Shown here: positions 1,585 to 35,864 of the stretch, one piece after another
Numbering within the stretch: position 1 is the stretch's first letter
Layout of the letters: each line of letters starts with the position of its first letter
Assembly: GCA_963752475.1 (NCBI GenBank)
Contig: CAVVYR010000007.1
Span: forward strand, 1-64,000
DNA from: an uncultured Chloroflexia bacterium
Lineage (GTDB): Bacteria > Chloroflexota > Limnocylindria > Limnocylindrales > CSP1-4
Reading direction: 5' to 3'
DNA length: 64,000 bases
Position numbers and translations under genes: made by a program
Notes under the pieces: generated by a model
What the model saw: only the letters and a program-made list of their open reading frames with translations
Databases searched by the model: none
What the model was told of the DNA's origin: nothing

Positions 1585-1599
1585 CACCCGGTTCGGGTG
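1585..1599. promoter_or_regulatory. Palindromic operator site 1 (CACCCGGTTCGGGTG), between divergent genes
   Basis: TATGCT at 1622-1627 (+, 22-nt gap) and CAGTCT at 1556-1561 (-, 23-nt gap); motif recurs 10 times. Confidence 0.75.
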
Positions 1600-1676
1600 G
1601 AACCGCACCTCGCGCGCCCGGTATGCTCCAAGTCCCGAGAGGAACGAAGCATCCGCAGGCGATCGTAGGGAGGACC

Positions 1677-4364
1677 GTGGACGTCACCGAACCCACATTC
1701 GTCCCGACCAAGACGCAAGCACCACGCGTGCCCGCGAGCGCCATCGAGCGTCTCGGTGTGCACGACCGGCTCGACGCGGTGCTCGACCACCCGCTCACGC
1801 TGGTCACCGCGCCGGCCGGCTTCGGCAAGTCCTGGGCTCTCGCGGGCTGGCTGCAGGGAGCGGCGGCGCCACCCTCCTGCTGGGTCTCGCTCGACCCCTA
1901 CGACGATGACGCCATGCGCCTCTGGACCCACGTCATCGGCGCGGTCCGCGGCTCCGGCCAGCCTGCCGCCGCGACCGAGGCGACCGAGCTCATCAGCGGC
2001 TCGCCCGCGGGCTGGCCCCGCATCGTCGACGCGCTCGCGGCCGGACTGGCGGAGCAGGCCCAGCCGCTGGTCATCGTGCTCGACGACATCCATGCCGTCA
2101 GCAACCCCGAGGCCCTCGCCTCGCTGGGCCAGTTCCTCGCGCAGCTGCCGGCCACGAGCCACCTCGTGCTCGTGGGCCGCCACGACCCGGACATCCCGCT
2201 GGCGCGCTGGCGGGTCACCGGCGAGCTGCTCGAGATCCGCACCGGCGAACTGCGCTGCAGCCTGGCCGAGTCCGAGGCCCTCGTGTACGAGGCCCTGGGG
2301 CTGCAGCTCGCTGACAAGGACGTGGCCACCATCCACGAGCGCACCATGGGCTGGCTGGCCGGCATCCGCCTCGCAGCCACCGCGCTCTCGCGCCGTCCCC
2401 GCAGCGCGGCCGGGGCCGCGGCCCTCACCGGCGTGGGCACCATCGAGGGCGCCTACGAGGCCCTCGGTGACTACCTCATCGAGGAGGTCCTCGACACGCT
2501 CGAGGAGGACACGCGTCGGTTCCTGCTCGACATCTCGGTCCTGACCCGCCTCGACGTGGGCCTCTGCGACCACGTGGCCCAGACCACCGCCAGCGCGACC
2601 ATCCTCAGTGGCTTCGAGCGCTCGGGCTCGTTCATCACCCGCACCGCCGACGGCACCTACCGCCTCCATGACCTCGTCCGTGATGCCCTGCGCACCATCC
2701 TCCACCGCCAGGCCCCCGCCCGCGAGACCGAGCTGCTCCTGCGCGCCGCGCACTGGTTGCACGATCATGGCCAGCCCGTCGACGCGGTCAGCTACGCGCT
2801 CGAGGCCGAGCGCCCCGAGCTTGCCGAGCGCTGGCTCATCGAGTCCACCCGCGCCCTGCTCGAGGCCAAGCAGATCGAGACGCTCTGCGCGCTCTTCGAT
2901 CGCCTCGATGCGACGGGCTTCGAGATGTCGCCATCGGCGCTGCTGATGTGGATCTCCACCATCCTCTACAGCAGCCGGCCAGCGGCCCAGATCGACCGAG
3001 TGCTGGAGCGGGCCATGAAGTCGTACCTGGAACTGACCCCGGAGCAGGAACAGCAGTTGGCCCTCGACCTACTGGATGCGCCACATCTGTATCACGAGTC
3101 GGTCACCGAGTTGCGCTTGGTGACCATGTCGGCGATCGCCCACCGCGCCGGTGATCTCGAGTCGGCCCTGCAGTCCATGGCCTCTCTTGAGTCCGCACCC
3201 AGCGACAATGGCTTCATCGAGGCGGCGGCCGGTGAGGCGCGCATCTTCCAGGAGCAGTACGCCGAAGGGATCGGCCTGCTGCGGAGGTGGATCGATTGGG
3301 CCTCCCACGTGCAAGGATTGATGGCCGTGAACCTCGCATACGGTCTGTCGTTCTTCGCCTACGGCCTGCTTGGGCAGGGCAAGCTCACCGAGGCCGAGCG
3401 CGTGGCCGAGCAGGCCATCGAAGCGCTGGGGGCCATCGGGCTGACCGAGCTGCCGGCGTATGCCATCGGTGCCCTGCCGGCTGGCTGGGTAGCCTGGGAG
3501 CGCGGTGACCTCACAGCCGCGGAGACGATCGTCGACGCGGTGGCGCCGGCGATCGGAGCCTACGGCGAGGTCCCCACCACGGTACTGGCGCGCATGCTCC
3601 AGGCCCGCGTGCGCTTCTCGAAGGGCGACCCCGAGGCCGCTTTCGCGGCGCTCGAGGAAGCCCGGGTCATGAGCACCGGCCGTCCGGTACGGGGCCACTT
3701 CGCGGAGCGCCTCACCTTCGAGCAGCTGCGCCTGCACCTGCTCCTGGGCGATCCCGCCGCGGCCAGGCTCGACCTGCCCGACTGGCGCGAGCGTATCGAG
3801 CGGGGCCCCACCGGCATGCGCGAGCAGCTGCTCCTCGCGCGGCTGCTCATCGAGTCCGGCGCGGACGCCACGACCCTGCTCGACGAACTGCCCGAGGGCG
3901 CCGAGGTCACCGTCGTCCATGACATGGAGCTCGCGAAGTTGCGGGCCCTCGTGGCCCTGCGCGACGGCGACGAGACCGCCGCGCTCGAGCACCTCACCGC
4001 GGCCATGCGTATCGCGGTCCACAGCGGCCACCGCCAGATGTTCCTCGACTCCGAGCGGGCCTTGGGGGCCGTGCTCGACAACGCCGCCGCACGGAGCGGC
4101 TTCCTGCTGCGCTTCGACCGCGACGCTCCCCCGGTGGCCCCGCTCGAGGGTGCGCAGGCGATCCTCATCGAGCCGCTCTCGGACCGGGAGCTGGAGCTGC
4201 TGCGCCTGCTGCCCAGCCATCTCTCGTACCGCGAGATCGGTGCGCACATGTTCCTCTCCACCAACACCGTCAAGTCCTACGTCCAGTCCATCTACCGCAA
4301 GCTCGACGCCGAGCGTCGCTCCGAGGCGGTCGAGCACGCCCGTTCCCTGGGCCTGGTGCCCTAG
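1677..4364 (+). CDS. MalT-like STAND ATPase / LuxR-HTH transcriptional activator, paralog 1
   Basis: PTKTQAPR start motif, Walker A APAGFGKS, Walker B VIVLDDIH, ERTMGWLAGIRL, C-terminal LuxR HTH EPLSDRELELL...STNTVKSYVQSIYRKL; GTG after GGGAGG RBS. Confidence 0.93.
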   Translation: MDVTEPTFVPTKTQAPRVPASAIERLGVHDRLDAVLDHPLTLVTAPAGFGKSWALAGWLQGAAAPPSCWVSLDPYDDDAMRLWTHVIGAVRGSGQPAAATEATELISGSPAGWPRIVDALAAGLAEQAQPLVIVLDDIHAVSNPEALASLGQFLAQLPATSHLVLVGRHDPDIPLARWRVTGELLEIRTGELRCSLAESEALVYEALGLQLADKDVATIHERTMGWLAGIRLAATALSRRPRSAAGAAALTGVGTIEGAYEALGDYLIEEVLDTLEEDTRRFLLDISVLTRLDVGLCDHVAQTTASATILSGFERSGSFITRTADGTYRLHDLVRDALRTILHRQAPARETELLLRAAHWLHDHGQPVDAVSYALEAERPELAERWLIESTRALLEAKQIETLCALFDRLDATGFEMSPSALLMWISTILYSSRPAAQIDRVLERAMKSYLELTPEQEQQLALDLLDAPHLYHESVTELRLVTMSAIAHRAGDLESALQSMASLESAPSDNGFIEAAAGEARIFQEQYAEGIGLLRRWIDWASHVQGLMAVNLAYGLSFFAYGLLGQGKLTEAERVAEQAIEALGAIGLTELPAYAIGALPAGWVAWERGDLTAAETIVDAVAPAIGAYGEVPTTVLARMLQARVRFSKGDPEAAFAALEEARVMSTGRPVRGHFAERLTFEQLRLHLLLGDPAAARLDLPDWRERIERGPTGMREQLLLARLLIESGADATTLLDELPEGAEVTVVHDMELAKLRALVALRDGDETAALEHLTAAMRIAVHSGHRQMFLDSERALGAVLDNAAARSGFLLRFDRDAPPVAPLEGAQAILIEPLSDRELELLRLLPSHLSYREIGAHMFLSTNTVKSYVQSIYRKLDAERRSEAVEHARSLGLVP

Positions 4365-4564
4365 GGGGATCGCCCCGGGGTACGTGGCACATCGCGTGGG
4401 GCGGATGCGGAGCGTGGCGGCCTGCTGACCACGCGCGCCGACCCTCATCGACGGCCCCTGCGCGATCGAGGCTTCCTGCGGCAACCGGGCCTGCTGCTGG
4501 GCCGTGCGCTCTACTCTTGATCAGGGCGTCACTGGCCACCCGGTGGAGATGTGAGTCCCGGCCA

Positions 4565-4586
4565 CCTGAGCCTGGACAGGCTCAGG
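4565..4586. terminator. Hairpin CCTGAGCCTG-ga-CAGGCTCAGG at the mscS stop, between convergent genes
   Basis: Perfect inverted repeat, no U-tract. Confidence 0.4.
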
Positions 4587-6090: not shown

Positions 6091-6105
6091 CCCCCGAATC
6101 GGGTG
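6091..6105. promoter_or_regulatory. Operator site 2 (CCCCCGAATCGGGTG)
   Basis: One mismatch to consensus; GACCCT on - strand at 6061-6066 (24-nt gap). Confidence 0.65.
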
Positions 6106-6163: not shown

Positions 6164-6178
6164 CACCCGGTTCGGGTG
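6164..6178. promoter_or_regulatory. Operator site 3 (CACCCGGTTCGGGTG), autoregulatory position
   Basis: Identical to site 1; TATGCT at 6201-6206. Confidence 0.75.
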
Positions 6179-6256: not shown

Positions 6257-8923
6257 GTGACCTTCGTCCCGACCAAGACACAGCCACCGCGCGTGCCCGC
6301 GAGCGCCATCGAGCGCCTCGGTCTGCACGACCGGCTCGGCGCGGTCCTCGACCATCCGCTCACGCTGGTCACCGCACCCGCCGGCTTCGGCAAGTCCTGG
6401 GCCGTCGCCGGCTGGCTGCAGGGCGATGCGGCCCCGGCCTCGTGCTGGGTCTCGCTCGACCCCTACGACGATGACGCCATGCGCCTCTGGGCCCACCTCA
6501 TCGGCGCGGTCCGCGGCTCCGCCCAGCCCGCCGCCGCGACCGAGGCGACCGAGCTCATCAGCGGCTCGCCCGCGGGCTGGCCCCGCATCGTCGACGCCCT
6601 TGCGGCCGGACTGGCGGAGCAGGCCCAGCCGCTGGTCATCGTGCTCGACGACATCCAGGCCGTGACCAACCCCGAGGCCCTCGCCTCGCTGGGCCAGTTC
6701 CTCGCGCAGCTGCCGGCCACCTGCCACCTCGTACTGGCGGGCCGCCACGACCCGGACATCCCGCTCGCGCGCTGGCGGGTCACCGGCGAACTGCTCGAGA
6801 TCCGCACCGGCGACCTGCGCTGCAGTCTGGCCGAGTCCCAGGCCCTCGTGCACGAGGCCCTGGGGCTGCAGCTCGCTGACAAGGACGTGGCCACCATCCA
6901 CGAGCGCACCATGGGCTGGCTGGCCGGCATCCGCCTCGCGGCCACCGCGCTCTCGCGCCGTCCCCGCAGCGCGGCCGGGGCCAGCGCCCTCACCGGCGTG
7001 GGCGCCATCGAGGGCGCCTACGACGCGCTCGGCGACTACCTCATCGAGGAGGTCCTCGACACGCTCGAGGAGGACACGCGTCGGTTCGTGCTCGACATCT
7101 CGGTGCTGACCCGCCTCGAGGTGGCCCTCTGCGACCACGTGGCGCAGACCACCGCCAGCGCGGCCCTCCTCTCGGACTTCGAACGCTCGGGCTCGTTCAT
7201 CACCCGTACCGCCGACGGCACCTACCGCCAGCATGACCTCGTGCGTGATGCCCTGCGCACCATCCTCCACCGCCAGGCCCCCGCCCGCGAGACCGAGCTG
7301 CGCCTGCGCGCGGCCCACTGGTTCCACGATCACGGCCAGCCCATCGACGCGGTCAGCTCCGCGCTCGAGGCCGAGCGCCCCGAGCTCGCCGAGCGCTGGC
7401 TCATCGAGTCCACCCGCGCCCTGGTCGAGGCCAAGCAGATCGAGACGCTCTGCGCCTTCTTCGACCGTCTCGATGCCACGGGCCACGAGTTCTCGCCGTC
7501 GGGGCTATTCATGTGGAGTGCCTCCAACCTCTATGGCAACCGCCCCGCGATCGAGATCGACCGCGTTCTCGACCGCGCGCGCCGGGCGTTTGCGTCGCTC
7601 AGCGACGAGGATCGCGATCAAGGCGAGAGTGATCTTGTCTATCTCGCTGGATCGTACGCATCGCTGGATGAGATCCGTCTCTTCCTGGAGGCGATAGTCG
7701 GCCACCGAGAGGGCAATCCCGAACGGGCCGGACGAGCCGCGGAGGCCCTGGGACAGCCAAGCTTGAGCGGCTTGACCGAAGCCCTGGCTGGTGTCTCACT
7801 GATCTTTCGAGAACAGTATTCAGCAGGCATGGACCTGGGGCGACGATGGCAAGCGTACGTGGAGCGGTCCATAGGGGTAGCGGCGTCGAACCTCGGCCAC
7901 AGCCGCTCCTGGCTCGCCTACGGGCTCCTCGGCCAAGGCAAGCTCACCGAGGCCGAGCGGGTCGCTGGCCGGGCTAGCGAGACTCTCCGGGCTATGGGGC
8001 TGACGGAAGTGCCGGCCTATGCATTGGTGACCCTGCCTGCAGGCTGGGTGGCCTGGGAGCGCGGGGACCTCACGGCCGCGGAGACGATCGTCGACGCGGT
8101 GGCGCCGGCGATCGGAGCCTACGGCGAGGTCCCCACCACGGTACTGGCGCGCATGCTCCAGGCCCGCGTGCGCTTCTCGAAGGGCGACCCCGAGGCCGCC
8201 TTCGCGGCGCTCGAGGAAGCCCGGGTGATGAGCACCGGCCGTCCGGTACGGGGCCACTTCGCGGAGCGCCTCATCTTCGAGCAGCTGCGCCTGCACCTGC
8301 TCCTGGGCGATCCCGCCGCGGCCAGGCTCGACCTGCCCGACTGGCGCGAGCGTATCGAGCGGGGCCCCACCGGCATGCGCGAGCAGCTGCTCCTCGCGCG
8401 GCTGCTCATCGAGTCCGGCGAGGACGCCACGACCCTGCTCGACGAACTGCCCGAGGGCGCCGAGGTCACCGTCGTCCATGACATGGAGCTCGCGAAGTTG
8501 CGGGCCCTCGTGGCCCTGCGCGACGGCGACGAGACCGCCGCGCTCGAGCACCTCACCGCGGCCATGCGTATCGCGGTCCACAGCGGCCACCGCCAGATGT
8601 TCCTCGACTCCGAGCGGGCCTTGGGGGCCGTGCTCGACAACGCCGCCGCACGGAGCGGCTTCCTGCTGCGCTTCGACCGCGACGCTCCCCCGGTGGCCCC
8701 GCTCGAGGGTGCGCAGGCGATCCTCATCGAGCCGCTCTCGGACCGGGAGCTGGAGCTGCTGCGCCTGCTGCCCAGCCATCTCTCGTACCGCGAGATCGGT
8801 GCGCACATGTTCCTCTCCACCAACACCGTCAAGTCCTACGTCCAGTCCATCTACCGCAAGCTCGACGCCGAGCGTCGCTCCGAGGCGGTCGAGCACGCCC
8901 GTTCCCTGGGCCTGGTGCCCTAG
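6257..8923 (+). CDS. MalT-like STAND ATPase / LuxR-HTH transcriptional activator, paralog 2
   Basis: Same motifs as paralog 1 with an identical HTH; GTG after GGGAGG. Confidence 0.93.
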   Translation: MTFVPTKTQPPRVPASAIERLGLHDRLGAVLDHPLTLVTAPAGFGKSWAVAGWLQGDAAPASCWVSLDPYDDDAMRLWAHLIGAVRGSAQPAAATEATELISGSPAGWPRIVDALAAGLAEQAQPLVIVLDDIQAVTNPEALASLGQFLAQLPATCHLVLAGRHDPDIPLARWRVTGELLEIRTGDLRCSLAESQALVHEALGLQLADKDVATIHERTMGWLAGIRLAATALSRRPRSAAGASALTGVGAIEGAYDALGDYLIEEVLDTLEEDTRRFVLDISVLTRLEVALCDHVAQTTASAALLSDFERSGSFITRTADGTYRQHDLVRDALRTILHRQAPARETELRLRAAHWFHDHGQPIDAVSSALEAERPELAERWLIESTRALVEAKQIETLCAFFDRLDATGHEFSPSGLFMWSASNLYGNRPAIEIDRVLDRARRAFASLSDEDRDQGESDLVYLAGSYASLDEIRLFLEAIVGHREGNPERAGRAAEALGQPSLSGLTEALAGVSLIFREQYSAGMDLGRRWQAYVERSIGVAASNLGHSRSWLAYGLLGQGKLTEAERVAGRASETLRAMGLTEVPAYALVTLPAGWVAWERGDLTAAETIVDAVAPAIGAYGEVPTTVLARMLQARVRFSKGDPEAAFAALEEARVMSTGRPVRGHFAERLIFEQLRLHLLLGDPAAARLDLPDWRERIERGPTGMREQLLLARLLIESGEDATTLLDELPEGAEVTVVHDMELAKLRALVALRDGDETAALEHLTAAMRIAVHSGHRQMFLDSERALGAVLDNAAARSGFLLRFDRDAPPVAPLEGAQAILIEPLSDRELELLRLLPSHLSYREIGAHMFLSTNTVKSYVQSIYRKLDAERRSEAVEHARSLGLVP

Positions 8924-9018: not shown

Positions 9019-9035
9019 CACCCACATCGGGGGTG
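9019..9035. promoter_or_regulatory. Operator site 4 (degenerate, CACCCACATCGGGGGTG)
   Basis: Upstream of the lipoprotein gene; GACTGT at 9060-9065. Confidence 0.5.
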
Positions 9036-9131: not shown

Positions 9132-9704
9132 ATGTCAACTCGAAGCTCCGTGCGTCGGCCGGCCCTGTTGCTGGCGCTGGCGGTGAGTGCTGTCCTGCTG
9201 ATCGCGGCCTGTGATGACGGCGCTGATGCAACGCCGGCCGCAGAGACGGCATCAGAGGCGTGGGCCAGCAGCGTGTGTGGTGCTGTGGCTACCTGGGAGG
9301 ACTCGATCAGGACCATCACGACCGACTTCAGCGATGGCATCTCCAAGGATGTCGTCACCGAGAAGGTCGATGACGCGGGGAAAGCCACGCAAGACCTCGT
9401 CGCTTCCCTGCGGGATGTCGGTGCACCCGAGACCGACGCTGGCCAGGACGCGAAGACGGCGATCGAGCAGTTCGCCGACGAACTCGAGTCAGGCGTCGAC
9501 TCGATCAAAGCTGATGTGCAGGACCTCGCGGACTCCGGTGCTGGAGGCGTCGCCTCAGGCGTGACCGATATCGCTACGCAGCTGAGCACGCTCATCGCGG
9601 ACGGTCAGGCCACACTCGGAGATATCCAGGGCCTGGACGCCGCGGAGGAGCTCAAGGCGGCCATCGAGAACGACGAGACCTGTCAGTCCCTTAGAGCCGA
9701 ATAG
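9132..9704 (+). CDS. Predicted lipoprotein, alpha-helical
   Basis: Signal peptide ending in LIAAC lipobox; WASSVCGA...C cysteine pair; GAGGT RBS. Confidence 0.8.
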   Translation: MSTRSSVRRPALLLALAVSAVLLIAACDDGADATPAAETASEAWASSVCGAVATWEDSIRTITTDFSDGISKDVVTEKVDDAGKATQDLVASLRDVGAPETDAGQDAKTAIEQFADELESGVDSIKADVQDLADSGAGGVASGVTDIATQLSTLIADGQATLGDIQGLDAAEELKAAIENDETCQSLRAE

Positions 9705-9917: not shown

Positions 9918-10373
9918 TCAGTCGGCCTCGTCCTGGTCATCGGCATCATCGCGGCGTCGACCAGCCAGCGGGCGCTGCGAAGCGATGCGAGAGATGAGTG
10001 CTGCCATGACGCCCAGCCCGGCGATGCCGTAGATGACGGTCACGATCTTGCTCAGGTCAGTCGTTGGGGCGATGTCGCCGTAGCCGATGGTAGCGAGGGT
10101 GATGAAGCTGAAGTAGAAGCCGTCGACCAGCGACAGGTCCTCGAGGACCATGAAGATGAGCGTGCCGGCCACGAGCAGCATCCCGGCTGCCACCAGGATG
10201 CTTCGGCTGGTTGCATCGCGCCAGATGCTGCGAAGCGCCACGTACGTGATCACGAAGGGCATGGCCATGGTGCCCGGAATCGCGACCAGCGCCTTGCCCG
10301 CTGTCTTCGCCGCGTGCCTGTCGTGTGGTTTGGGTGGCTGATCGCCGGCTGAGTTATCTGGCTCGCTGGTCAT
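9918..10373 (-). CDS. Two-TM potassium channel family protein (pore-only, Ion_trans_2)
   Basis: DGFYFSFITLATIGYGDIAP selectivity filter signature. Confidence 0.92.
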   Translation of the reverse strand: MTSEPDNSAGDQPPKPHDRHAAKTAGKALVAIPGTMAMPFVITYVALRSIWRDATSRSILVAAGMLLVAGTLIFMVLEDLSLVDGFYFSFITLATIGYGDIAPTTDLSKIVTVIYGIAGLGVMAALISRIASQRPLAGRRRDDADDQDEAD

Positions 10374-10555: not shown

Positions 10556-10570
10556 CACCCGGAGTGGGTG
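10556..10570. promoter_or_regulatory. Operator site 5 (CACCCGGAGTGGGTG)
   Basis: Divergent intergenic region; CAACGT on - strand at 10528-10533 (22-nt gap). Confidence 0.65.
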
Positions 10571-10619: not shown

Positions 10620-10634
10620 AACCCGATTCGGGTG
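10620..10634. promoter_or_regulatory. Operator site 6 (AACCCGATTCGGGTG)
   Basis: Heads the long + strand operon; CATCCT at 10659-10664 (24-nt gap). Confidence 0.65.
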
Positions 10635-10722: not shown

Positions 10723-11722
10723 ATGGCCGACAAGATCGTCACCGGACCCGTCCAGGTCTTCGTCATCGGTTTCGAGAAGCCCGACTTCAACGGGCGCATC
10801 CTCGCCGAGCTCAAGAAGGCCCGCAAGCGCGGCGTCATCCGCCTCGTGGACCTGCTCTTCGTGCAGAAGGACGCCGGCGGTTCCATCAGCTCGACGATGC
10901 ACATGACAGGCCTTAGTGAAGCCGAGCGCCTGCGCCTCGGTGCCGTGGCCGGCGGCCTCATCGGCCTCGAGGTCGGCGGCCTCGAAGGCATGGAGGAAGG
11001 CGCTGCCCGCGGTGAGCTCCGCGTGACCGCCCGTGACTACGGCATGAGTAGCGCCCAGCTGGCCGACCTCGCCGACAGCATCCCGGCCAACAGTGCCGCC
11101 GCGGTCATGGTCATCGAGCACCACTGGGCGGCGAGCCTGCGTGACGCGCTCGCCGACGCCGGTGGCGAGCTCCTGCTGCAGGCCATGATCGGACCGGACC
11201 TGCTGCTGACCATCGGGGCCGGGCTGGAGGCCCGTCTCGAGGCCGAGGAGGCCATCGAGGAGGCCGAGGCCATCAAGTACGCGGCCGCGGTCGAGGTCGC
11301 CCAGACCCTCGCTGAGGCCGAGATCATCGAGGAGCTGGCCATGGAAGAGGCGGCTGACGTGGTCGCCACCGCGATGGCCATCGAGGATGCCGTCGCGGCC
11401 GACGTGGCCGAGGCGCTCATCGAGGCCGAGTTCATCGAGGACGTCGCCGCCGACGAGGCCGCGGCAGCGGTCGAGGAAGCCCTGGCCATCGAGGACGAGG
11501 CTGCCGCTGAGGCGGCCGATGCGGTCGAGACCGCGGCCGAGATCAAGGCCGCCGCCGCGGTCGAGGCCCTGCGCGCGCTCTACGTCGCCAAGGTCATCGA
11601 AGACGAGGCCGCCCAGGAGGCCGTCGACGCCCTCGTGGCTGCCGAGATCATCGAGGACGAGGCTGCCGCCGAGGCCCTCGACGCCGTCATCGCTGCCGAG
11701 GAGGTCGAAGCAGGAAGCCTGA
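10723..11722 (+). CDS. DUF6325/DUF1269-like protein with long acidic Ala/Glu repeat tail; probable frameshift just before the stop
   Basis: GPVQVFVIGF, GVIRLVDLLFVQKD, IEHHWA motifs; GAGGAG RBS; TGA at 11720-11722 is out of frame and the literal ORF reads on to 11871, overlapping the next gene. Confidence 0.75.
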
Positions 11723-11786
11723 GTCGACGAGGGCGATGGATGCGCCACAGCCAAGCCAACACACGTAGCGAACAGGAGTACACACC

Positions 11787-13346
11787 ATGGCCAAGAAACG
11801 GGGAACGGCATTCGACGTCCCGTCGAACGTCTTCGTGCCCGATGAGCTGGACTCACGGCTGGGCAAGCTGACCTTCACTGACGGGGCACCCAGCGACGAG
11901 ACCGTCGAGAAGATCTACGACAACCTCGACTTCACCCGCGCACTCGACGCCTACATGAACGGCTACCAGCTGGCCTCCCTGAAGGCCATGCACAACGGCC
12001 TGCTGGCCCACGGCGCCGAGGACAACGGCGGCGTGATGATCTGGTCGAAGCTGATGGATTCCCAGTCCCTCTTCCTGACCGCCAATGCCGACACGATCTA
12101 CTACATCTTCACCATCAACCTCAACGAGGGACCGATGGTCGTCGAGACCCCGCCGGATGCGCTGGGCCTCTTCGATGACTTCTGGTTCCAGCACGTCATC
12201 GACTTCGGCCGGCCGGGTCCGGATCGCGCGAAGGGTGGCAAGTTTCTCCTGGTGCCTCCGGGCTATGACGGCCCGATGCCGGACAGCGGCTTCCACGTGG
12301 GCGCCTGTACGTCGATGTTCGTGATGGCCTTCGGCCGCAACTTCCTGCAGGACAACGACCCCAAGCCGGTCGTCAAGTCGATCAAGGACACCCTCAAGAT
12401 CTATCCCTACACGCCGGGTGGTTACGGCACCAGCATCGCCACGCTGCTCGAGGGCAAGACGACTCCGGGCAAGCCGGCGGCAGTCAAGCCGACCCACTTC
12501 GTGGAGGGCACCGGCCTGGACATGAACACGCTGCCCCCCAGCGACCACACCTACTTCGACATGCTCAACGAGATCGTGCAGGAGGAGCCGAGCGGCGTGA
12601 TCTCCAAGGAGATCATGGGCTCGTTCGCGGCCATCGGCATCGTCAAGGGCCAGAAGTTCAAGCCGAATAAGCGCATGCAGAAGATCCTCGCCGACGCTGC
12701 GGCGGTCGCTTGCGCCACCGGGCGTTCGCTGAACTGGCGCTTCCGAGATGAAGACGGCTGGGCGTTCTATCCGGGATCTGCCTGGTACAACATGCTCTGG
12801 CAGGGCGGCTACAACTACGAGACGCCGCCGCCGGAAGTGACCAAGGACGGCATCAAGCCCTACCCGCCGACCGGCTACCGCATGCTCAACGCCCGCTTCG
12901 GCTTCTTCTCCATCGCCACCGGGGTCACCCCGGCCATGTGCATGCGCTTGACGGGCATCGGCTCGCAGTACCTGATCGCCGACGTCGACGCCGACAAGAA
13001 CTACTTCGACGGCGCCAAGACCTACAAGTGCACCTTGCCCGCGAACATCCCGGAGGTCAACTTCTGGTCGTTCACGGTCTACGACAACCAGACCCGCTCC
13101 ATGCTGCGGACACCCCAGGGTTACCCGAGGGCCGGCAGCCAGTCGTACCCCAGCCCGGCGGCCGTCCACAACAAGAACGGCACCGTGGACATCTACTTCG
13201 GCCCGGTGGCGCCCAAGGGCAAGGAAGCCAACTGGATCCAGACCGTACCCGGCAAGGGTTGGTTCACGATCCTGCGCATCTACAGCCCCACGGAGGCCTA
13301 CTTCGACAAGACCTGGCAGGCCGGCGAGATCGAGCTGATCGACTGA
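11787..13346 (+). CDS. DUF1254/DUF1214 domain protein
   Basis: LFLTANADTIY, GPDRAKGGKFLLVPPGY, FWSFTVYDNQTRS, NWIQTVPGKGWF; CAGGAG RBS; no evident signal peptide. Confidence 0.92.
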   Translation: MAKKRGTAFDVPSNVFVPDELDSRLGKLTFTDGAPSDETVEKIYDNLDFTRALDAYMNGYQLASLKAMHNGLLAHGAEDNGGVMIWSKLMDSQSLFLTANADTIYYIFTINLNEGPMVVETPPDALGLFDDFWFQHVIDFGRPGPDRAKGGKFLLVPPGYDGPMPDSGFHVGACTSMFVMAFGRNFLQDNDPKPVVKSIKDTLKIYPYTPGGYGTSIATLLEGKTTPGKPAAVKPTHFVEGTGLDMNTLPPSDHTYFDMLNEIVQEEPSGVISKEIMGSFAAIGIVKGQKFKPNKRMQKILADAAAVACATGRSLNWRFRDEDGWAFYPGSAWYNMLWQGGYNYETPPPEVTKDGIKPYPPTGYRMLNARFGFFSIATGVTPAMCMRLTGIGSQYLIADVDADKNYFDGAKTYKCTLPANIPEVNFWSFTVYDNQTRSMLRTPQGYPRAGSQSYPSPAAVHNKNGTVDIYFGPVAPKGKEANWIQTVPGKGWFTILRIYSPTEAYFDKTWQAGEIELID

Positions 13347-13422
13347 CGGCCTGCCACTGTCCACGGAGGTGACCGCCGCCTTGGCGGTCGCCTCCACCCC
13401 CAAACGTAGTCGAGGACATCCG

Positions 13423-13920
13423 ATGACCAGACTTGACCAGACCGACGAAGCTATGGACAACATGGCGAGCGCGGACCCCAAGGAGATCGAGGCGCTGTAC
13501 GTGCAGAACGCCGCGAGCACCGCATTCGATGGTGAGCGCCTGACGCTCGCCGGCGTGGGACCGACCACGCTGCTCTTCTCCGATCGACCGGACCGCGTCA
13601 CCGCGCACGTGCCCACCACGGAGTTCGTGGACGGCTGGGGCGATGGCGATGACAGCTTCGCCTCCAACCCACCCAACGCAGTGCTCTCGTCCTTCGACGG
13701 CGACGAGGTCAACGACGTGGTCGTGGTGCTCAGCGAGCCCGTGCTCAAGGGTTCCGACCTGAGTTACCTGGTGACCATCACCGACGGTGAGCTCGCGGCG
13801 TCGAGCGCCGAGTCGTCGATGTTCATCGACAGTATCGGACGGCCGCTTTCGCCCGTCTCGGTCGCCGGAGCTCGGCGTCGAGGCCGCCGCCGGACTCGAC
13901 GCAGGGTCGGCCGGCGTTGA
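13423..13920 (+). CDS. Hypothetical protein with Arg-rich C-terminal tail
   Basis: LYVQNA, FSDRPDR, SNPPNAVLS; ends IGRPLSPVSVAGARRRGRRRTRRRVGRR; GAGGA RBS. Confidence 0.8.
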   Translation: MTRLDQTDEAMDNMASADPKEIEALYVQNAASTAFDGERLTLAGVGPTTLLFSDRPDRVTAHVPTTEFVDGWGDGDDSFASNPPNAVLSSFDGDEVNDVVVVLSEPVLKGSDLSYLVTITDGELAASSAESSMFIDSIGRPLSPVSVAGARRRGRRRTRRRVGRR

Positions 13921-14022
13921 GGCTGAACGATCTCAGAACGCGATCGGTGATGCGCATGGGATGAGCTGCCACATCGTCCAACCGGTTCAACAGGAACACT
14001 GCAGACACCTAGGAGAAGACCA

Positions 14023-14643: not shown

Positions 14644-14655
14644 TCCGTTTCACCT

Positions 14656-14696
14656 CCCTCGCCGGGCAAGCTCCCCTGAGGCCTACCCGGCGAGGG
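14656..14696 (+). terminator. Intergenic stem-loop (CCCTCGCCGGG / CCCGGCGAGGG)
   Basis: 11-bp perfect inverted repeat after the stop codon; attenuator or mRNA stabiliser. Confidence 0.55.
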
Positions 14697-14771
14697 CCTT
14701 GATACCAAGCACCAGGCAGCCGAGTACCCAATGGACCGGTGCGACCAGGACCCGGATCCCGGAGGATCACG

Positions 14772-16559: not shown

Positions 16560-16568
16560 ACCCAGTGA

Positions 16569-24064: not shown

Positions 24065-24067
24065 CGC
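22099..24067 (+). repeat. ~1.97-kb direct repeat, copy 1 (copy 2 at 30169..32137)
   Basis: Constant offset of 8070; only about five differences seen, all near the ends. Confidence 0.95.
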
Positions 24068-24152
24068 TACGGTGGCGACCCAGGAGGCAGCGACACGGCA
24101 ACTGACTGATCGGTCACTCGACCGCGTCGAACCTAGAGGAGGGCGGAGGACG

Positions 24153-25217
24153 ATGAGCAGCAGCAAGGACCAGGGCAAGGGCGCCGCTGCGACCAAGCAG
24201 TCCCTGGCGCCGACGGGCAAGCTGGGATTCCGGGGTCGCAGCGCGACACCAGAGGAACAGGCACAGGTCTTCGACGCCTTCTTCTTCGAAGGCAAGCGAA
24301 GGATCCCCTACCTGCAGCAGTTCTTCACGCTGATGGTGCTGTCGGCGGCGATCGCCGCTTTCGGTCTCGTCAACAACTCGGCCGCGGTGGTCATCGGGGC
24401 CATGCTCGTGGCGCCGCTGATGACACCCATCCTCGCGATCGCCGCCGCCGTCGTGCAGGGCTGGGGCAGCCGAGTAGTGGAGTCCTTTGCCATCGTCGGT
24501 GCGGGCGCCCTCGCAGCCATCGCCGTAGGCGTGGTGATCTCATTCATCACCCCTGTGCTGCGTACCGACCTGCCGCTTCCGGGCGAGATCCTGGCACGCA
24601 CCAGTCCCAACCTCATCGACCTGTGCATCGCCCTTGCCGCCGGTGCGACCGGTGGCTTCGTGGCCGTGCGTACCGAAGCCAGCGGCGCTCTACCGGGTGT
24701 CGGCATCGCCGTCGCCCTGGTACCGCCCCTCGCGACGGTGGGCCTGACTGCCGGGCTGGGTTTGTGGAGTCTGTCGTTCGGGGCGCTGCTGCTCTTCGCT
24801 ACCAACCTGGTGGCGATCGTGCTGGCTGCCGGACTGGTCTTCGTGGCCGCGGGCCTCGCCGCCTTCCGCGATGACCGCGGGTTGGCGCAATCCAAGGTCG
24901 CCTCAGCCATCATCGTGATCGCCGTCGTCGTGGTCGCGGTGCCGCTGTTCATTCACTCGCTCCAGCGTTTGGAGCAGGGTGACGCGATGGCCGCGGTGGC
25001 CGAGCAGACGTCTGACTGGGCGCCCGACCTCATGCTCACGCACGTCATCGTCGATCGAGATGTCGATCCCATCAGGGTCACTATCGCGGTCACCGGCGCG
25101 GACAGCCCACCAGACGCGGACCTACTCGCGGCGAGGCTGGCCGCGAGACTCAGCACGGCCGTGGATGTCGACGTGGTCTTCGCGCCGATTACCACAGGCA
25201 GCGCGCCGGCGCCATAG
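24153..25217 (+). CDS. DUF389 (TIGR00341-like) membrane protein
   Basis: SAAVVIGAMLVAPLMTPI, EILARTSPNLIDL, LPGVGIAVALVPPL. Confidence 0.92.
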   Translation: MSSSKDQGKGAAATKQSLAPTGKLGFRGRSATPEEQAQVFDAFFFEGKRRIPYLQQFFTLMVLSAAIAAFGLVNNSAAVVIGAMLVAPLMTPILAIAAAVVQGWGSRVVESFAIVGAGALAAIAVGVVISFITPVLRTDLPLPGEILARTSPNLIDLCIALAAGATGGFVAVRTEASGALPGVGIAVALVPPLATVGLTAGLGLWSLSFGALLLFATNLVAIVLAAGLVFVAAGLAAFRDDRGLAQSKVASAIIVIAVVVVAVPLFIHSLQRLEQGDAMAAVAEQTSDWAPDLMLTHVIVDRDVDPIRVTIAVTGADSPPDADLLAARLAARLSTAVDVDVVFAPITTGSAPAP

Positions 25218-25247: not shown

Positions 25248-25775
25248 CTAGCTGGGCTCGGTCGGGGCGTCTGCCTTGATCGAGCCGCAGCCCCAGCGAG
25301 TGTCGGCCAGGATGCTCAGCTTCGGAGCACCGTCGGGGAGCGCCTCCGGGTCACCGGCCTCGACCGCAAGCTCGGAGAGCAGGCCCAGCGACACCTGCTT
25401 GATCTCGACGGCCCAGCCCTCGGGTACGACGACCTCGACACGGGCGAACGAGGTCACCAGGTCGAGATGCGCGCCCTTCGGGTCAAGCGTCGCCTGGCGC
25501 AGATCGATCCGCGTTCGGCCCAGTAGCGTCATCACGCTGCCGTACCTGAAGGGTGAGGCGCCGATGGTCAGGTCCTTGCCGGTCATGATGGTCATGAAGC
25601 TGAAGTCATCGGTGTCCTCATCGCCGCGACTCAGTCCTTTCGCGACGACCTGGGCGGAGGCATAGGCCCCGGCGACCGCACCGGCCACCATCACCAGCTG
25701 CAGCATCCTTCGGATGAGCCTGCCCTTCACTTTGGCGGCGACCACGTCCGTGGCCATCTGTAGAGCTCTCTTCAT
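25248..25775 (-). CDS. LiaF/DUF2154-like membrane-anchored protein
   Basis: One TM, IDLRQATLDPKGAHLDL, VEVVVPEGWAV; AAGGAG RBS. Confidence 0.7.
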   Translation of the reverse strand: MKRALQMATDVVAAKVKGRLIRRMLQLVMVAGAVAGAYASAQVVAKGLSRGDEDTDDFSFMTIMTGKDLTIGASPFRYGSVMTLLGRTRIDLRQATLDPKGAHLDLVTSFARVEVVVPEGWAVEIKQVSLGLLSELAVEAGDPEALPDGAPKLSILADTRWGCGSIKADAPTEPS

Positions 25776-25827
25776 CGTCGTCTCCTTGTCGATCTTGGGG
25801 GTCTGTGGTCGGCGTGCTCGCGAGTCC

Positions 25828-27534
25828 CTAGGCAGTGGCAGCGGCCTCCGCGGGGGACTCGGCAGCGGCCGCAAGGAAGGCGGCCACGCCGTCGTCGACC
25901 TCAAGGTAGATGCGTTCCGCGCCGACGCGCTCTTCGATGCGGGAGTCCTGCAATTCGTCGCGAAGCTCGGTGCGTACGCGCGCGAAGGCGAGGGCGATAT
26001 CCCGGTCCTCGAGCATGTCAAGCAGCTCGTTGATGGCCTGAGCGCCCGACGAATCCACGTCGCTGATGGCTTCCGCGTCGATGAGCACCATGCGCACCTG
26101 CGGATCGGCGTCCTCGACCGCGGCCGAGATGTCATCGCGCAAGCGCCCGGCATTGGCGAAGAAGAGCGGTGCATCGAAGCGATAGATGAAGAGCCCCGGG
26201 TACGTTTCGGCACCCTCGTGGTCGTCGACGTCCCGGTAGGTGTCCGTGCCGGGCAGCCGGCCGAGCGTGGCCGTGCTCGGCTCAGCAGCCCGCAGCACGA
26301 CCATCAGGAGCGACAATCCGACCGCGATGAGGATGCCGGCGAGCATGCCCAGCACCAGCACCGCCACGGCGGTGAACACGGCCATCCAGAACTCCGCCCG
26401 TCGGTAGCGGTAGATGGCCTTGAAGTCGGTGATGTCGAGCAGGCCCAGGCCGGCCACGATGACGATGCCGGCGAGGGCCGCTGACGGCAAGAAGGCGAAG
26501 ATGCCCGACAGGAACAGCAGGGTCAGCAACACGAAGCCGGCCGCCCACAGGTTGGCGACCTGGCTCTTGGCACCGGCATCACCAGCCACGAAGCTCCGCG
26601 ACTGGCTGCCGTTGACGGGGATACCGCCGAGGAAGCCGGCGCCGATGTTGGCCGCGCCCACGCCGAAGAACTCGCGATCCGCATCGAGGCGGTACTTGCC
26701 CACCACCGCGAGCGAGCGCCCGGTGAGCACGCTGTCGGGGTAGACCAGCAAGGCTACTGCCACGGCCGGGCCGATGAGCGTGAGCACGGTGTCCAGCCCC
26801 ACGCCCGGGAACGATGGCGTGGGCACGCCCGATGGGAAGGAGCCCACGACCTCGACCTCGGAGTCGAGCCCGAACACCGCCACGAGGACGATCGAAGCGA
26901 CGACCACGACGAGAGCCCCCGGGATGCGCCGGTTGACGCGCCGCAGGCCCATGACGATGACGATGGCTCCCGCGCCGATGGCCAGCGCCAGCAGGTTCGT
27001 ATCGCCGAGGTTGCGCACGATGCCGCCGAGGTCGGTGGCGTAGAGCGCCTTGTCGACATCGATGCCGAAGAGCGCCGTGAGCTGGCTGCCGATGATGAGC
27101 AGGCCGGAGCCGAAGACGTAGCCGGCCAGGATCGGTCGGGAGAGGAAATCGGCGATGCGCCCCAGGCGGAGCAGACCGCCGACGACCAGCACGATGCCCA
27201 CGAGGATGGCCAGCGTGGCTGCGAGGGCGATGTACTCCTCGCTGCCCACGACCGCGAGCGGGGCCAGGATAGTGGCGACCATGATGGCCACCGTCGATTC
27301 CGGGCCCACGTTCAGCTCACGGCTACTGCCCCACAGCCAGTAGAGCAGCAGCGCGCCGAAGGCGGTGTAGAGGCCGTACACCGAGGGCACGCCCGCGAGC
27401 GTGGCGTAGCCCATGGCCTGGGGCACGAGGATGGCCCACACCGTCACCCCCGCCACGAGATCGGGTGTCAGCCAGCCTCGCTGGTAGGAACGGAGGGCTG
27501 CCAGCCCTGGAACCATGCGCCCGAGCAGCTCCAT
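25828..27534 (-). CDS. SulP (SLC26) anion transporter with STAS domain
   Basis: DLVAGVTVWAILVPQAMGYA, GPEST, YRFDAPLFFANA. Confidence 0.93.
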   Translation of the reverse strand: MELLGRMVPGLAALRSYQRGWLTPDLVAGVTVWAILVPQAMGYATLAGVPSVYGLYTAFGALLLYWLWGSSRELNVGPESTVAIMVATILAPLAVVGSEEYIALAATLAILVGIVLVVGGLLRLGRIADFLSRPILAGYVFGSGLLIIGSQLTALFGIDVDKALYATDLGGIVRNLGDTNLLALAIGAGAIVIVMGLRRVNRRIPGALVVVVASIVLVAVFGLDSEVEVVGSFPSGVPTPSFPGVGLDTVLTLIGPAVAVALLVYPDSVLTGRSLAVVGKYRLDADREFFGVGAANIGAGFLGGIPVNGSQSRSFVAGDAGAKSQVANLWAAGFVLLTLLFLSGIFAFLPSAALAGIVIVAGLGLLDITDFKAIYRYRRAEFWMAVFTAVAVLVLGMLAGILIAVGLSLLMVVLRAAEPSTATLGRLPGTDTYRDVDDHEGAETYPGLFIYRFDAPLFFANAGRLRDDISAAVEDADPQVRMVLIDAEAISDVDSSGAQAINELLDMLEDRDIALAFARVRTELRDELQDSRIEERVGAERIYLEVDDGVAAFLAAAAESPAEAAATA

Positions 27535-27543
27535 GGCTCTGGA

Positions 27544-29355
27544 CTAGTCCTCGACCTGGTCGGTGTTCTGTCCGTCATCGGGCTGGGCCGTGCCAGCGCC
27601 GTCGTCGGCCTCGTCGTGGTCCGCGTCAGCGGCGTCAGTGCCGGCCAGGCCTCGTGGACCGTCCCGCTCGAAGGTGGCCACCGCGGCACCCACGCTGGGG
27701 AAGATGGGCGCGTTGGCGAGCACGCCGAGTCGACCCAGGATCTCCGCGACTCGCGTCTTGATCCGCGCAGCCCAGACCTCGATGCCGACTTCGCGCAGCT
27801 CCGCGATGAGATCCCGGAGCACGCCCACGGCGGTCGAATCGATGTCACTGATGGATTCGGCGTCGATGAGCACCACTTGCGGCTTGGGGTCGGCTGCCGC
27901 GATCGCCTCGAGCACGTCGTCGGCGAAGACGTTGGCGTTGGCAAAGAAGAGGTCGGCGTCGAAGCGGAAGATGAGCAGCCCCGGAACCGTCTTGCCCTCA
28001 GGGTGCGCCTCGAGGCTTTGGTATGCGATGTCGTCGGACCCTGCGTCCTTCGTACGTCCCAGGATCGCCCACCGGGGACGGCTGGCCCGCGCGAGGATGA
28101 GTAGGAACGAGACGCTCACGGCGATCACGAGGCCCGCGAGGATGTCGAAGGCGAGCACACCCAGCAAGGCGGCCAGCCCGGCCCAGAAGTCGTCGCCGCG
28201 GATCTTCCAGTAGCGGCTGACCTTGCTGAAGTTGATGAGGTGCCAGACGGCGTGGATGACGATGGCACCCAGCGTCGCTTCGGGCAGGTTCTCGAACAGG
28301 CCGGTCAGGAAGAGGATGGTGATGAAGACCGCTGCGGTGAGCCCGATGGAGGCCAGCTGCGTCTTCTGGCCGGCCTGGTCAGCGGCTGCGGACTTCGAGA
28401 GGCTGCCATCGACGACGAAGGAGCCCACCAGGCCGGAGGCGGCGTTGGCCGCACCAAGGGCGATCAGCTCCTGGTTGGCGTCGACCTTGTAGCCGTACTT
28501 GCGCGCGTACGTACGCGCAGCTGCGACCAATTCGGCGAAGCCCACGACGACGATGGCGATCGCGCCCGGGATGAGGCTGACCCACTGGGTCAAGGTGATA
28601 TCTGGCCAGGCCAGCGACGGCAGACCGGCAGGGATCTCGCCGATGATGGCGACGCCGTCTTGGGCGAGGTCGAGGACGGAGACGATGGCGATGGCCAGGC
28701 CGGCCACCACGAGTGCTGCTGGGATGCGCGGGATGAAGCGCTCCATGGTGAAGAGCAGCGCCAGACTGCCGACACCGAGGACCAGCGTGGCCAGCACGGT
28801 CTCGTCGAGGTTGGCGACGACCGCGAAGATGTCACCGAAGAAGTTCTCGCCCGTCTCCTCGATCCCGAAGAGCTTGTGCACCTGGCCGGCGGCGATGGTC
28901 AATGCCAAGCCGACGATGAACCCATCGAGCACCGGTTTGGACATGAAGTCGGCCAGGAAGCCCAGCTTCACCAGACCGGCGACGATGAAGAAGGCGCCCG
29001 TCAGGATGGCCAGGCCGATGGTCAGGGCGTAGAACGTACTCGGGTCGCTGCCCGCGGCGAGCCCGCCGATGACCGAGAAGGACAGCACCGCGACCGTCGA
29101 GCTGGGGCCGACGTTGAGCTGTCGAGAGGTACCGAAGATGGCGTACGCGAGCGGCGCCACGAGCGCGGCATAGAGGCCGGTCTCGGGCGGCATCCCCGCC
29201 AGCGAGGCATAGGCCATGGCCTCGGGCACCACCAGTGCCCAGACCGTCAGGGCAGCAACGAGGTCCGTTGCGAGATAGCCCTTCTCGTAGCTGGCGATCC
29301 AGAACGAGATAGGGATGTAGGTGCGCCAGCTTGGGCGCTGTCCCGTGCTAGTCAT
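27544..29355 (-). CDS. SulP (SLC26) anion transporter with STAS domain
   Basis: DLVAALTVWALVVPEAMAYA, DANQELIALG, FRFDADLFFANA. Confidence 0.93.
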   Translation of the reverse strand: MTSTGQRPSWRTYIPISFWIASYEKGYLATDLVAALTVWALVVPEAMAYASLAGMPPETGLYAALVAPLAYAIFGTSRQLNVGPSSTVAVLSFSVIGGLAAGSDPSTFYALTIGLAILTGAFFIVAGLVKLGFLADFMSKPVLDGFIVGLALTIAAGQVHKLFGIEETGENFFGDIFAVVANLDETVLATLVLGVGSLALLFTMERFIPRIPAALVVAGLAIAIVSVLDLAQDGVAIIGEIPAGLPSLAWPDITLTQWVSLIPGAIAIVVVGFAELVAAARTYARKYGYKVDANQELIALGAANAASGLVGSFVVDGSLSKSAAADQAGQKTQLASIGLTAAVFITILFLTGLFENLPEATLGAIVIHAVWHLINFSKVSRYWKIRGDDFWAGLAALLGVLAFDILAGLVIAVSVSFLLILARASRPRWAILGRTKDAGSDDIAYQSLEAHPEGKTVPGLLIFRFDADLFFANANVFADDVLEAIAAADPKPQVVLIDAESISDIDSTAVGVLRDLIAELREVGIEVWAARIKTRVAEILGRLGVLANAPIFPSVGAAVATFERDGPRGLAGTDAADADHDEADDGAGTAQPDDGQNTDQVED

Positions 29356-29416: not shown

Positions 29417-29431
29417 CACCCGCATCGGGTG
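29417..29431. promoter_or_regulatory. Operator site 8 (CACCCGCATCGGGTG)
   Basis: TACCCT on - strand at 29388-29393 (23-nt gap), upstream of the sulP pair. Confidence 0.75.
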
Positions 29432-33917: not shown

Positions 33918-33932
33918 CCCCCGAAGCGGGTG
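33918..33932. promoter_or_regulatory. Operator site 9 (CCCCCGAAGCGGGTG)
   Basis: CATCGT on - strand at 33889-33894 (23-nt gap). Confidence 0.7.
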
Positions 33933-34573: not shown

Positions 34574-34850
34574 TCAGTCATTCGCCGTCAATCCCAGGGC
34601 GACCTCGAAGACGCTCTTGTTGGCGGCGTCAAGGGCCGTCGCAGCTGCGGAAGGCGGGGCGTCCAGGAAGCGACGACCGCGGGTGAGTTCATCCCACACG
34701 ACCAGCAGCGACACGGCCTCGGCGCCGAACCGCTCCGCGACCGCGAGGGTCGTGGCCGTCTCCATCTCCACCGACAGGAGGCCCTCTTCGTCAGCGCGCC
34801 ATCATGGACGATGACTCCGCGAACAGCGACGAGAACGTGATGTGTGGCCC
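34574..34850 (-). pseudogene. Nucleoside phosphorylase C-terminal fragment
   Basis: GLLSVEMETATTLAVA...SLLVVWDEL. Confidence 0.6.
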
Positions 34851-35061
34851 GACGTGGACATCGTGGCCTCGCTGTCGCAAGGAGGCGCTGGCCCGCTCAA
34901 CGTGTCGCTGCGTCGCGCGGACCGTGTCTGCCTCCGCATAGTGGTGATACTCGCTGCCCGCGCACCTGACAGCCGGCTATGAGCCCATACACGCCGACGA
35001 CGCGGCCACGGTCCGGCCGTTGCCGAGCGGCCGGGTCGCGACGCTCGGTCACACCTTGAGG

Positions 35062-35680
35062 TCAGGCCTCCGGTGCCGGCTCCTCGGTCGGCTCTGGCGT
35101 GTAGCAGGGGAACTCATACGGCGGCGTCGCCTCTGGGTCGAAGCTGTAGTCCGGCGGCAATGCGAGATCCGGAGGGAAGGTGAAGTCCGGCGGGAGCGTC
35201 GCCTCGGGATCGAAGCTCTCGTCAGGACCCAGGCTCGGACATGGGCCCATGGTCCACTCGGGCGTGGGCTCCGGCTCAGGCGTGGGCTCCGGCTCCGGCT
35301 CCGGCGTGGGCTCCGGCTCCGGCTCAGGCGTTGGCTCCGGCTCCGGCTCGCGCGTCGGCTCCGCGCGTCGGCTCCGGCTCCGGCTCGCGCGTCGGCTCCG
35401 GCTCCGGCGTGGGCTCCTCCGTGGGCTCCGCGGTGGCCTCTTCCGACGATCCTGGTGACGGGCTGACGATGAGCGTCGGCTCAGGCGACGAGGTCGACTC
35501 CTCCGGATCGAGGAAGCCCCCGAACAGGACGGCGCCAGCGACGATCAGCACGCCCACCGCGATGATGGCGATCCACCACCTGTTCCCCGCGGGGCCGCTC
35601 GGCTCGGTCGAAGCCTCCTCAGCTGGCGCATCCTCGGGCGTCTTCTCGTCGGTCATCTTGGGCGTCTCCTCGTCGGTCAT
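35062..35680 (-). CDS. Membrane-anchored Pro/Thr/Glu-repeat protein, frameshift near 35362
   Basis: GGGGAG RBS, one TM, EPTPEP repeats; frame switches inside the repeat tract and continues into 35062..35250. Confidence 0.7.
35258..35430. repeat. Imperfect hexamer tandem repeat (GGCTCC/GGCGTG/GGCTCA) encoding EP/TP
   Basis: Visible directly. Confidence 0.9.
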
Positions 35681-35849
35681 GATGCGGTGCTCTCCCCGGC
35701 AACAGTCATCCTCTATCTGACCATCACACTAGGATATCGACTGGTCGCCGCTTTGCGTATCACGCTCTGCTCTGGGCGGGCGCTACAGGGCGGCCGCGGC
35801 TCCTCTGTGGCCGCTCCCGAAGCGTCGCCAAGAAGGGCGTGCACCGCTA

Positions 35850-35864
35850 CACCCGAAGCGGGTG
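35850..35864. promoter_or_regulatory. Operator site 10 (CACCCGAAGCGGGTG)
   Basis: GACGCT on - strand at 35821-35826 (23-nt gap); last copy in the window. Confidence 0.7.

Follow-up and report, generated by a model that had tools for sequence, protein, structure and literature searches.

The closest described counterpart of the system discussed here is a 51-gene region of Actinoplanes SE50/110, named MRLGR, in which the palindrome TCATCC-N5-GGATGA lies 34.4 nt ahead of 17 start sites (PMC7567727). According to the parts of that source used here, the region includes two MalT-like genes, three DUF1269 genes and one AI-2E gene (Table S3), together with arginine deiminase, ornithine carbamoyltransferase and carbamate kinase. 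Deletion of malT lowers 42 genes and its overexpression raises 39, while the second MalT-like gene has slight effects only; transcription of the region also rises on maltose. Nonomuraea gerenzanensis provides the best match for several genes of the region (PMC7567727, Table S3). A second point of reference is the Streptomyces regulator BldM, described with the same half-site as the element studied here and a 2-nt centre (PMC4125116; PMC8914203, as far as these sources were used). The present analysis concerns a related palindrome, C(A/C)CCCG-N3-CGGGTG (hereafter the box), and two MalT-like regulator genes in an island of membrane-protein genes from an uncultured Chloroflexia bacterium (GCA_963752475.1; 4.25 Mb in 38 contigs). 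The stretch analysed (the window) comprises the first 64 kb of contig C7 (CAVVYR010000007.1), and the island runs from the contig start, so that its left border is out of view.

The palindrome is very probably the operator of the two local MalT-like regulators (STAND proteins with a LuxR-type helix-turn-helix, HTH), predicted to be used as an activation site. This proposal, already made by an earlier sequence-only reading of the window, draws support from the clustering of the copies, their intergenic position, their promoter geometry, the occurrence of the box near regulator relatives chosen blind to the motif, the clade-specific variants of the box, and the Actinoplanes system.

The motif or a near copy was found at all ten positions where ten copies had been claimed, but the exact pattern is present at only seven (1585, 6091, 6164, 20608, 29417, 33918 and 35850). 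Sites 10556 and 10620 have one mismatch each to the palindrome and 9019 has two. The exact pattern gives 12 strand matches in the window against 0.09 expected from shuffles; at the two-mismatch level, 14 matches compare with 10.4 expected, close to chance, and site 9019 is weak for this reason. All five perfect copies of CACCCG-N3-CGGGTG in the genome are intergenic and lie inside 1585–35864, so that a genome scan, suggested earlier as a check for enrichment in island promoters, came out in favour and no REP-like genome-wide spread was seen. With up to one mismatch allowed, 9 of the 44 copies in the genome fall within 1585–35864, where its length alone predicts 0.38 (Poisson p ~1e-9 when one duplicate is left out), and none occurs in 36–64 kb of the window, as had been noted by eye. 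For each other spacer the genome holds 0–5 perfect copies, spread across contigs and in 9 of 12 cases inside coding sequence; the genome-wide count of five is not unusual, and the signal is the clustering. The intergenic position also held for all ten sites, which lie outside the curated genes, in the non-coding 14% of positions 1–36,200 (genes cover 86%). Neither GC content nor skew gave an island signature.

The same data bear on the idea that the copies are a REP-like repeat, a mobile-element end or an RNA hairpin, spread by duplication and devoid of a regulatory role. Some duplication did take place. Sites 1585 and 6164 are one promoter, copied along with the regulator gene and its upstream region, so that the two boxes described as preceding the MalT-like genes do precede them (1585 regulator A, 6164 regulator B) but are not independent. 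In addition, an eleventh site, outside the window at C7:664461, stands in a paralogous promoter, ahead of a paralogue of the island unit for a 32-aa peptide and DUF2252, and a 6-bp stem with a 3-nt loop could fold. On the other side, the flanks of the remaining copies are unrelated to each other, no T-tail follows, the Rfam scan of the window returned no match, and the spacing to a -10 hexamer is fixed at 23 nt. Moreover, the paired positions do not co-vary: positions 6 and 10 are G–C in 17, G–G in 9, C–C in 8 and C–G in 2 of 43. This explanation is strongly disfavoured and hardly credible. The eleventh site belongs to a decayed island fragment at the opposite end of the contig (C7:664461–672569), with the box, DUF2252 remnants, DUF389, amidohydrolase-like, transposase-like and SulP sequences. 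Paralogues of island genes on contigs C6, C8, C19, C5 and C32 mostly have no good box.

Promoter geometry provides the second line of evidence. At nine of the ten sites a -10-like NANNNT hexamer begins 22–24 nt past the 15-mer, oriented to the next gene (background per position triple, 0.078). This spacing would place the box end at about -36 and the box centre at about -43, an activator position. The TA(G/T)C on the promoter side of the box sits at the -35 position; the GCTA or GATA 5′ flank described earlier is present, but it is really the reverse complement of this -35-position hexamer. The -10 hexamer is of the housekeeping type and the box abuts a poor -35 hexamer, in line with a scan of 1–20 kb for consensus sigma-70 promoters, which found none. 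In 23 related loci, 39 of 72 oriented sites have the hexamer at exactly 23 nt (0–6 at any other offset), as do 45 of 113 in the wider clade; these sets contain overlapping and kindred loci, some fetched for a motif match, and the counts are not independent, although spacing was no selection criterion.

A fixed distance to the -10 hexamer and contact with the -35 position would also suit the upstream part of a promoter read by an alternative sigma factor, and the local regulators might also act as repressors at the box. Both variants are very unlikely. The box is palindromic and is predicted, from hexamers on both sides, to work both ways at 1585; the -10 is of the housekeeping NANNNT type in promoters lacking a consensus -35; the scan of the island proteins detected no sigma gene; and the Actinoplanes homologue activates (PMC7567727, in the parts used here).

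The two regulators themselves fit the STAND/LAL type, with a P-loop NOD carrying Walker A and B motifs, an arm, a TPR-like sensor and a C-terminal LuxR HTH. Regulator A (1677..4364, + strand, 895 aa) shows Walker A and B, TPR_MalT and GerE HTH, and regulator B (6257..8923, + strand, 888 aa) is identical to it in the last 69 aa, which make up the HTH. TPR_MalT and GerE were matched in Pfam and AAA fell below its cut-off; the Walker motifs are invariant in the regulator alignment. The predicted structure of B (pLDDT, the predicted local distance difference test, 84.7) has a fold matching MalT and PH0952 (8bob, 6mfv, 1hz4), and profile comparison to the MalT structure 8bob gave E 2e-62. The NCBIfam MalT equivalog NF003420 was not reached (246–250 bits against a cut-off of 537), and the Pfam scan of the island proteins detected no maltose transport or degradation family.

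The A and B proteins are 90–100% identical except at residues 401–550 (30–56%) and 551–600 (76%). The diverged segment of B spans 7478..8017 on the + strand (about residues 405–590; DNA identity to A 48–77% against 83–100% elsewhere), and the matching segment of A lies at about 2930–3490. Beyond 8077 the two DNA sequences are 97–100% identical. Such sharp divergence, limited to the arm/sensor junction and followed by near identity, suggests gene conversion or a segment swap. In MalT the NOD-arm comprises residues 1–442 and the sensor 443–803 (PMC6468293, in part), and the end of the arm and the first sensor repeats jointly form the high-affinity inducer site (PMC4381067, in part). Alignment to MalT places the diverged part of A and B in this arm end and these first repeats. 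Since the HTH is identical and the arm/sensor segment diverged, A and B may feed two inducers into one regulon; the same region is also the most variable in other regulator pairs, and divergence alone is no proof of different ligands.

By analogy with E. coli MalT and Actinoplanes, a small ligand would bind the arm/TPR sensor, the ATPase core would then open and oligomerise, and two HTH domains would bind the half-sites and recruit RNA polymerase. The boxes at the regulators' own promoters would add positive feedback, and the output would be a set of membrane and ion-transport proteins.

Comparison with related genomes tied the box to the regulator. In 30 loci chosen by the regulator protein alone, with the motif ignored, the matrix gave 39 matches in 203 kb, while the reversed matrix gave 1 and the swapped matrix 0. 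A box lies up to 450 nt upstream of 15 of 24 subfamily regulator genes (reversed control, 0). A tree was built from 116 MalT-like proteins (128 found, 12 left out as duplicates or cut), and relaxed intergenic boxes were counted by clade: 2.7 per 10 kb in the subclade of the window (8 loci, of which 2 were retrieved because of motif matches), 1.2 per 10 kb in the rest of the large clade (54 loci, 38 with a box) and 0.26 per 10 kb in the outgroup (37 loci), which is under its own reversed control. Both the box and its 23-nt hexamer spacing thus recur around relatives of the regulator, the outcome hoped for when a comparison of related loci was first suggested.

Furthermore, unsupervised dyad counting in loci grouped by tree clade returned a different palindrome for each group: ACCCG-N3-CGGGT in the subclade (15 copies, 7/8 loci, 0.19 expected), TCACC-N7-GGTGA in the large clade (25 copies, 13/54 loci), TCACC-N6-GGTGA in one outgroup branch (8 copies, 8/17 loci) and TCCCC-N2-GGGGA in a nested branch (7 copies, 4/5 loci from 4 genomes). 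The box type tracks the regulator clade. Within the large clade, at least two boxes were present in 13 of 14 regulator-picked loci with at least two island families, against 5 of 21 without (35 loci in all); this association is support and not proof, as kin share both traits.

In Nonomuraea gerenzanensis, homologues of DUF1269 and AI-2E occur with two tandem MalT-like genes and with 8 boxes between genes (reversed, 0), whose mixed CATCC/CACCC half-sites bridge the variants of the window and of Actinoplanes. Mixed CACCC/CATCC half-sites are also found in the wider clade, and the window box is therefore considered a variant within one motif family.

Other elements were observed around MalT-like genes. 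A nested regulator clade (helix STVRTQIKSIY; L065, L070, L072, L073, L080) has TCCCCTAGGGGA followed, after ~12 nt, by a GGTGATG half-site, which in several copies lies 23–24 nt ahead of a TAYGCT hexamer. Seven outgroup loci (L018, L015, L131, L135, L138, L150, L154) contain one 16-bp TCACCA-N4-TGGTGA palindrome each, and 9 of 32 loci of the outgroup have DUF4386 neighbours. In the source genome, outside the window, a second mini-island (C1:17246–21686) combines a short MalT-like gene with a T-flanked box at 19689, followed at 23 nt by a -10-like hexamer and then by DUF6325-like and DUF1254-like genes, so named by sequence likeness.

The exact box variant was also considered as a general feature of DUF1269 loci and rejected: 40 actinobacterial DUF1269 regions (770 kb) gave only 6 matches to the window's exact matrix (reversed, 2), and these loci have either different variants or no box. 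On four plasmids (two of Streptomyces, one each of Rhodococcus and Embleya), the DUF2252 loci lacked a MalT-like gene and gave 0–3 relaxed matches (reversed, 0–1), and a Streptomyces plasmid carrying two MalT-like genes lacked island cargo and gave 3 weak matches. Counting the plain pattern across 60 relatives (0–7 copies each, control 0–4) gave a signal not separable from chance. RNA-library contigs (two studies), which cover parts of the 4–24 kb interval at 92% identity or above, were left unused as expression support, as they give no starts, strand or level and possibly derive from DNA.

Regarding its distribution, the closest titled relatives of the regulator come from a Chloroflexota bin (73%) and actinobacterial bins (42–47%). 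Of 48 further genomes from the genus, one gave a match at orthologue level, and the TA-flanked box turned up in one of 200 further genomes from the class. This patchy presence suggests lateral transfer.

Several observations weigh against the assignment of the box to the local pair. No upstream box was found for 9 of the 24 subfamily regulator genes, and 16 of the 54 wider-clade loci have no intergenic box. The recognition helices are alike across clades with different boxes, and no residue-level HTH/operator code is readable from the tree. Site 9019 lacks a -10-like hexamer at 22–24 nt. In Actinoplanes, the binding of MalT to the motif is assumed in PMC7567727, in the parts used here. Moreover, island pieces in the same-genus genome G022 share this box and its flanks, and no orthologue of the regulator was found in that genome (best HTH 51%; genome 70% complete). 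Finally, the source genome encodes 12 other LuxR-type HTH proteins, several of them MalT-like.

These last two facts are what would be expected if the activator box were read by another LuxR/NarL-type regulator encoded elsewhere, such as a short MalT-like paralogue or a BldM-like response regulator, the local pair being regulon members only. The binding of BldM to TCACcCgnncGgGTGA, with an identical half-site (PMC4125116, as consulted), and the slight effects of the second Actinoplanes MalT-like gene point in the same direction. However, BldM sites have an N2 spacer, and the source genome's 5 perfect copies with that spacer are scattered, 4 of them in coding sequence, while the N3 box is confined to the island. 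The short MalT-like gene on contig C1 adjoins its own T-flanked variant, and box variants track the clade of the adjacent regulator. A remote regulator is for these reasons thought improbable, and the two local MalT-like proteins are retained as the likely readers of the box.

The earlier claim that the sites stand upstream of transcription units was borne out, since 11 of the 13 gene units in 1–35.9 kb face a box (one via the weak 9019), both regulator genes included. Gene families were assigned by Pfam scan, which confirmed those named from sequence, except that DUF6325 was matched only by a profile built for this analysis. The totals comprise DUF1269 x2 (one just under the cut-off), SulP x3, AI-2E x2 and the two MalT-like regulators, and a rough hydropathy count gave a membrane segment in 19 of 23 cargo proteins.

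From left to right, the perfect box 1585..1599 faces both directions: regulator A on the + strand (TATGCT 22 nt after) and a Pfam-defined LURP-one-related (948–1487) and DUF1269 (87–821) unit on the - strand (CAGTCT 23 nt after). Both hexamers are conserved in the related locus L102. Box 6091..6105 (-, 1 mismatch to the palindrome; GACCCT 24 nt after) faces a small membrane protein (5681–6001) and an MscS channel (4582–5469), both on the - strand, and the perfect box 6164..6178 (+, duplicate of 1585; TATGCT 22 nt after) faces regulator B. The weak box 9019..9033 (+, 2 mismatches, no NANNNT at 22–24 nt) faces a 190-aa protein with a hydrophobic N-terminus (9132..9704, +). Box 10556..10570 (-, 1 mismatch; AACGTT 23 nt after) faces a two-helix Ion_trans_2 channel of the K+ channel type (9918..10373, -). 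Box 10620..10634 (+, 1 mismatch; CATCCT 24 nt after) faces eight + strand genes (10723..20575) encoding a DUF1269-like protein, DUF1254/DUF1214, two unnamed proteins, a SulP-STAS protein, a holin-like and phosphodiesterase fusion, an SBF symporter and a VTT-domain protein.

The perfect box 20608..20622 (+; CATGCT 23 nt after) faces FUSC-like, double AI-2E and DUF389 genes (20696..25217, +), and the perfect box 29417..29431 (-; TACCCT 23 nt after) faces two SulP-STAS genes and a gene for a 169-aa protein (25248..29355, -). Box 33918..33932 (-, 1 mismatch; CATCGT 23 nt after) faces the 32-aa membrane peptide (33757–33855) and DUF2252 (32201–33694), both on the - strand. The last, perfect box 35850..35864 (-; GACGCT 23 nt after) faces a membrane-anchored Pro/Glu-rich open reading frame (ORF; 35324..35680, -) that is probably frame-shifted within its repeat. 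The two units without a box are a 5′-truncated AI-2E duplicate (30169–32137, +) and the adjoining META-domain ORF (29500–30108, -).

Other features of the locus were recorded. Most of the double AI-2E gene is duplicated at 99.7% identity (22099–24067 and 30169–32137), the second copy lacking its 5′ end, which reflects either a recent duplication or an assembly artefact. The DUF1269-like ORF 10723–11871 ends in an acidic tail of Ala/Glu repeats and shares 85 nt with the following gene; relatives' contigs show indels near 11711–11747, and a frameshift in the window's copy is therefore likely. A 74-bp repeat (95% identical) lies downstream of both the MscS (4582–4655) and the K+ channel (9804–9877) genes. 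Within 33950–35000, which resembles pseudogene debris, a GNAT acetyltransferase remnant (34024–34208) is 76% like 59406–59591 of an intact gene (59349–59867). Just beyond the island, a cluster without a box (40822–45760) encodes a GH130 phosphorylase, two glycosyltransferases and one unnamed protein. A groES-groEL pair is located at 51356–53348, with extra groEL copies at C7:391 kb and C6:851 kb.

As for function, 215 genes preceded by a box with a -10 were collected from 58 loci. The most numerous groups are DUF1269-type (36), a 113-aa group (14), DUF1254 (13), DUF7144 (10), SulP (7) and AI-2E (6), with a minority of glutamate decarboxylase (2), HdeD-like (4, below the cut-off), ClC-like (3) and K+ channels and P-type ATPases (3). 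Glutamate decarboxylase, HdeD, ClC, arginine deiminase, ornithine carbamoyltransferase and carbamate kinase serve acid resistance; none of these families is present in the window. From the cargo, involvement in ion, pH or weak-acid balance is a plausible guess, on the whole doubtful. More speculative still, and rather unlikely in its full form, is a cross-phylum family of STAND-controlled membrane regulons with clade-specific operators (palindromes of 15, 17, 16 and 14 bp), which would serve ion/pH or weak-acid balance instead of sugar use and in which the duplicated activator, with a single kind of DNA-binding domain and two different arm/sensor segments, would form a two-signal OR gate. If true, DUF1269, DUF2252, DUF389, DUF1254 and DUF7144 would all become accessible through one regulatory handle. 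For the island itself, one predicted switch would control a dozen uncharacterised membrane families, and the twin activators offer a natural controlled pair for finding non-maltose ligands of MalT-like sensors.

A literature search, with most subscription journals outside its reach, gave no paper on the present motif variant or on the DUF families taken together, and a further one listed only the 2020 Actinoplanes paper and two others that refer to it once; the comparison rests on three described systems, those of PMC7567727 and PMC4125116 being taken from parts of these sources. With E. coli MalT the regulators share the NOD-arm-TPR sensor-LuxR HTH architecture and a proximal box at the -35 region. 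They differ in that E. coli has boxes built of a repeated asymmetric GGA(T/G)GA core and not a palindrome (PMC7567727), the window island has no mal genes and the equivalog score is below the cut-off. The BldM homodimer site of Streptomyces is also a CACCCG-like inverted repeat bound by a LuxR/NarL-type HTH, as shown by footprinting (PMC4125116); unlike the window's box it is a 16-bp site with a 2-nt centre, and BldM is a response regulator without STAND domains that governs a genome-wide developmental regulon (PMC4125116).

The closest likeness is to Actinoplanes MRLGR. In both, a palindrome of the form CAYCC-N5-GGRTG lies upstream of most units; in Actinoplanes it touches the -35 region, with its 3′ end 34.4 nt from the start, and the window's 17-mer equivalent would end near -35, judging from the hexamers. 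Both regions include two MalT-like genes and, as far as the source was consulted, no maltose genes, and both carry poorly annotated membrane cargo, represented in the window by DUF1269 x2, AI-2E x2 and DUF2252 (the last of these being matched in the A. missouriensis region, Table S4). In contrast, the window's half-site is CACCCG, around a conserved G-N-W-N-C centre and lacking the flanking T/A, as opposed to TCATCC, and the exact TCATCC-N5-GGATGA consensus does not describe its profile, in which position 3 is C in 96% and the preceding base T in 12%. The window island also differs in its probable Chloroflexota host, in its near-identical twin regulators with one diverged segment, in the addition of three SulP genes, SBF, FUSC, MscS, a K+ channel, DUF389 and DUF1254, and in having no arginine deiminase, amylase or peptidase genes. 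The system is thus not new in kind and adds no new kind of regulation; it is a new, distant example of the experimentally shown Actinoplanes type, and it extends this actinobacterial regulon type to a distant host.

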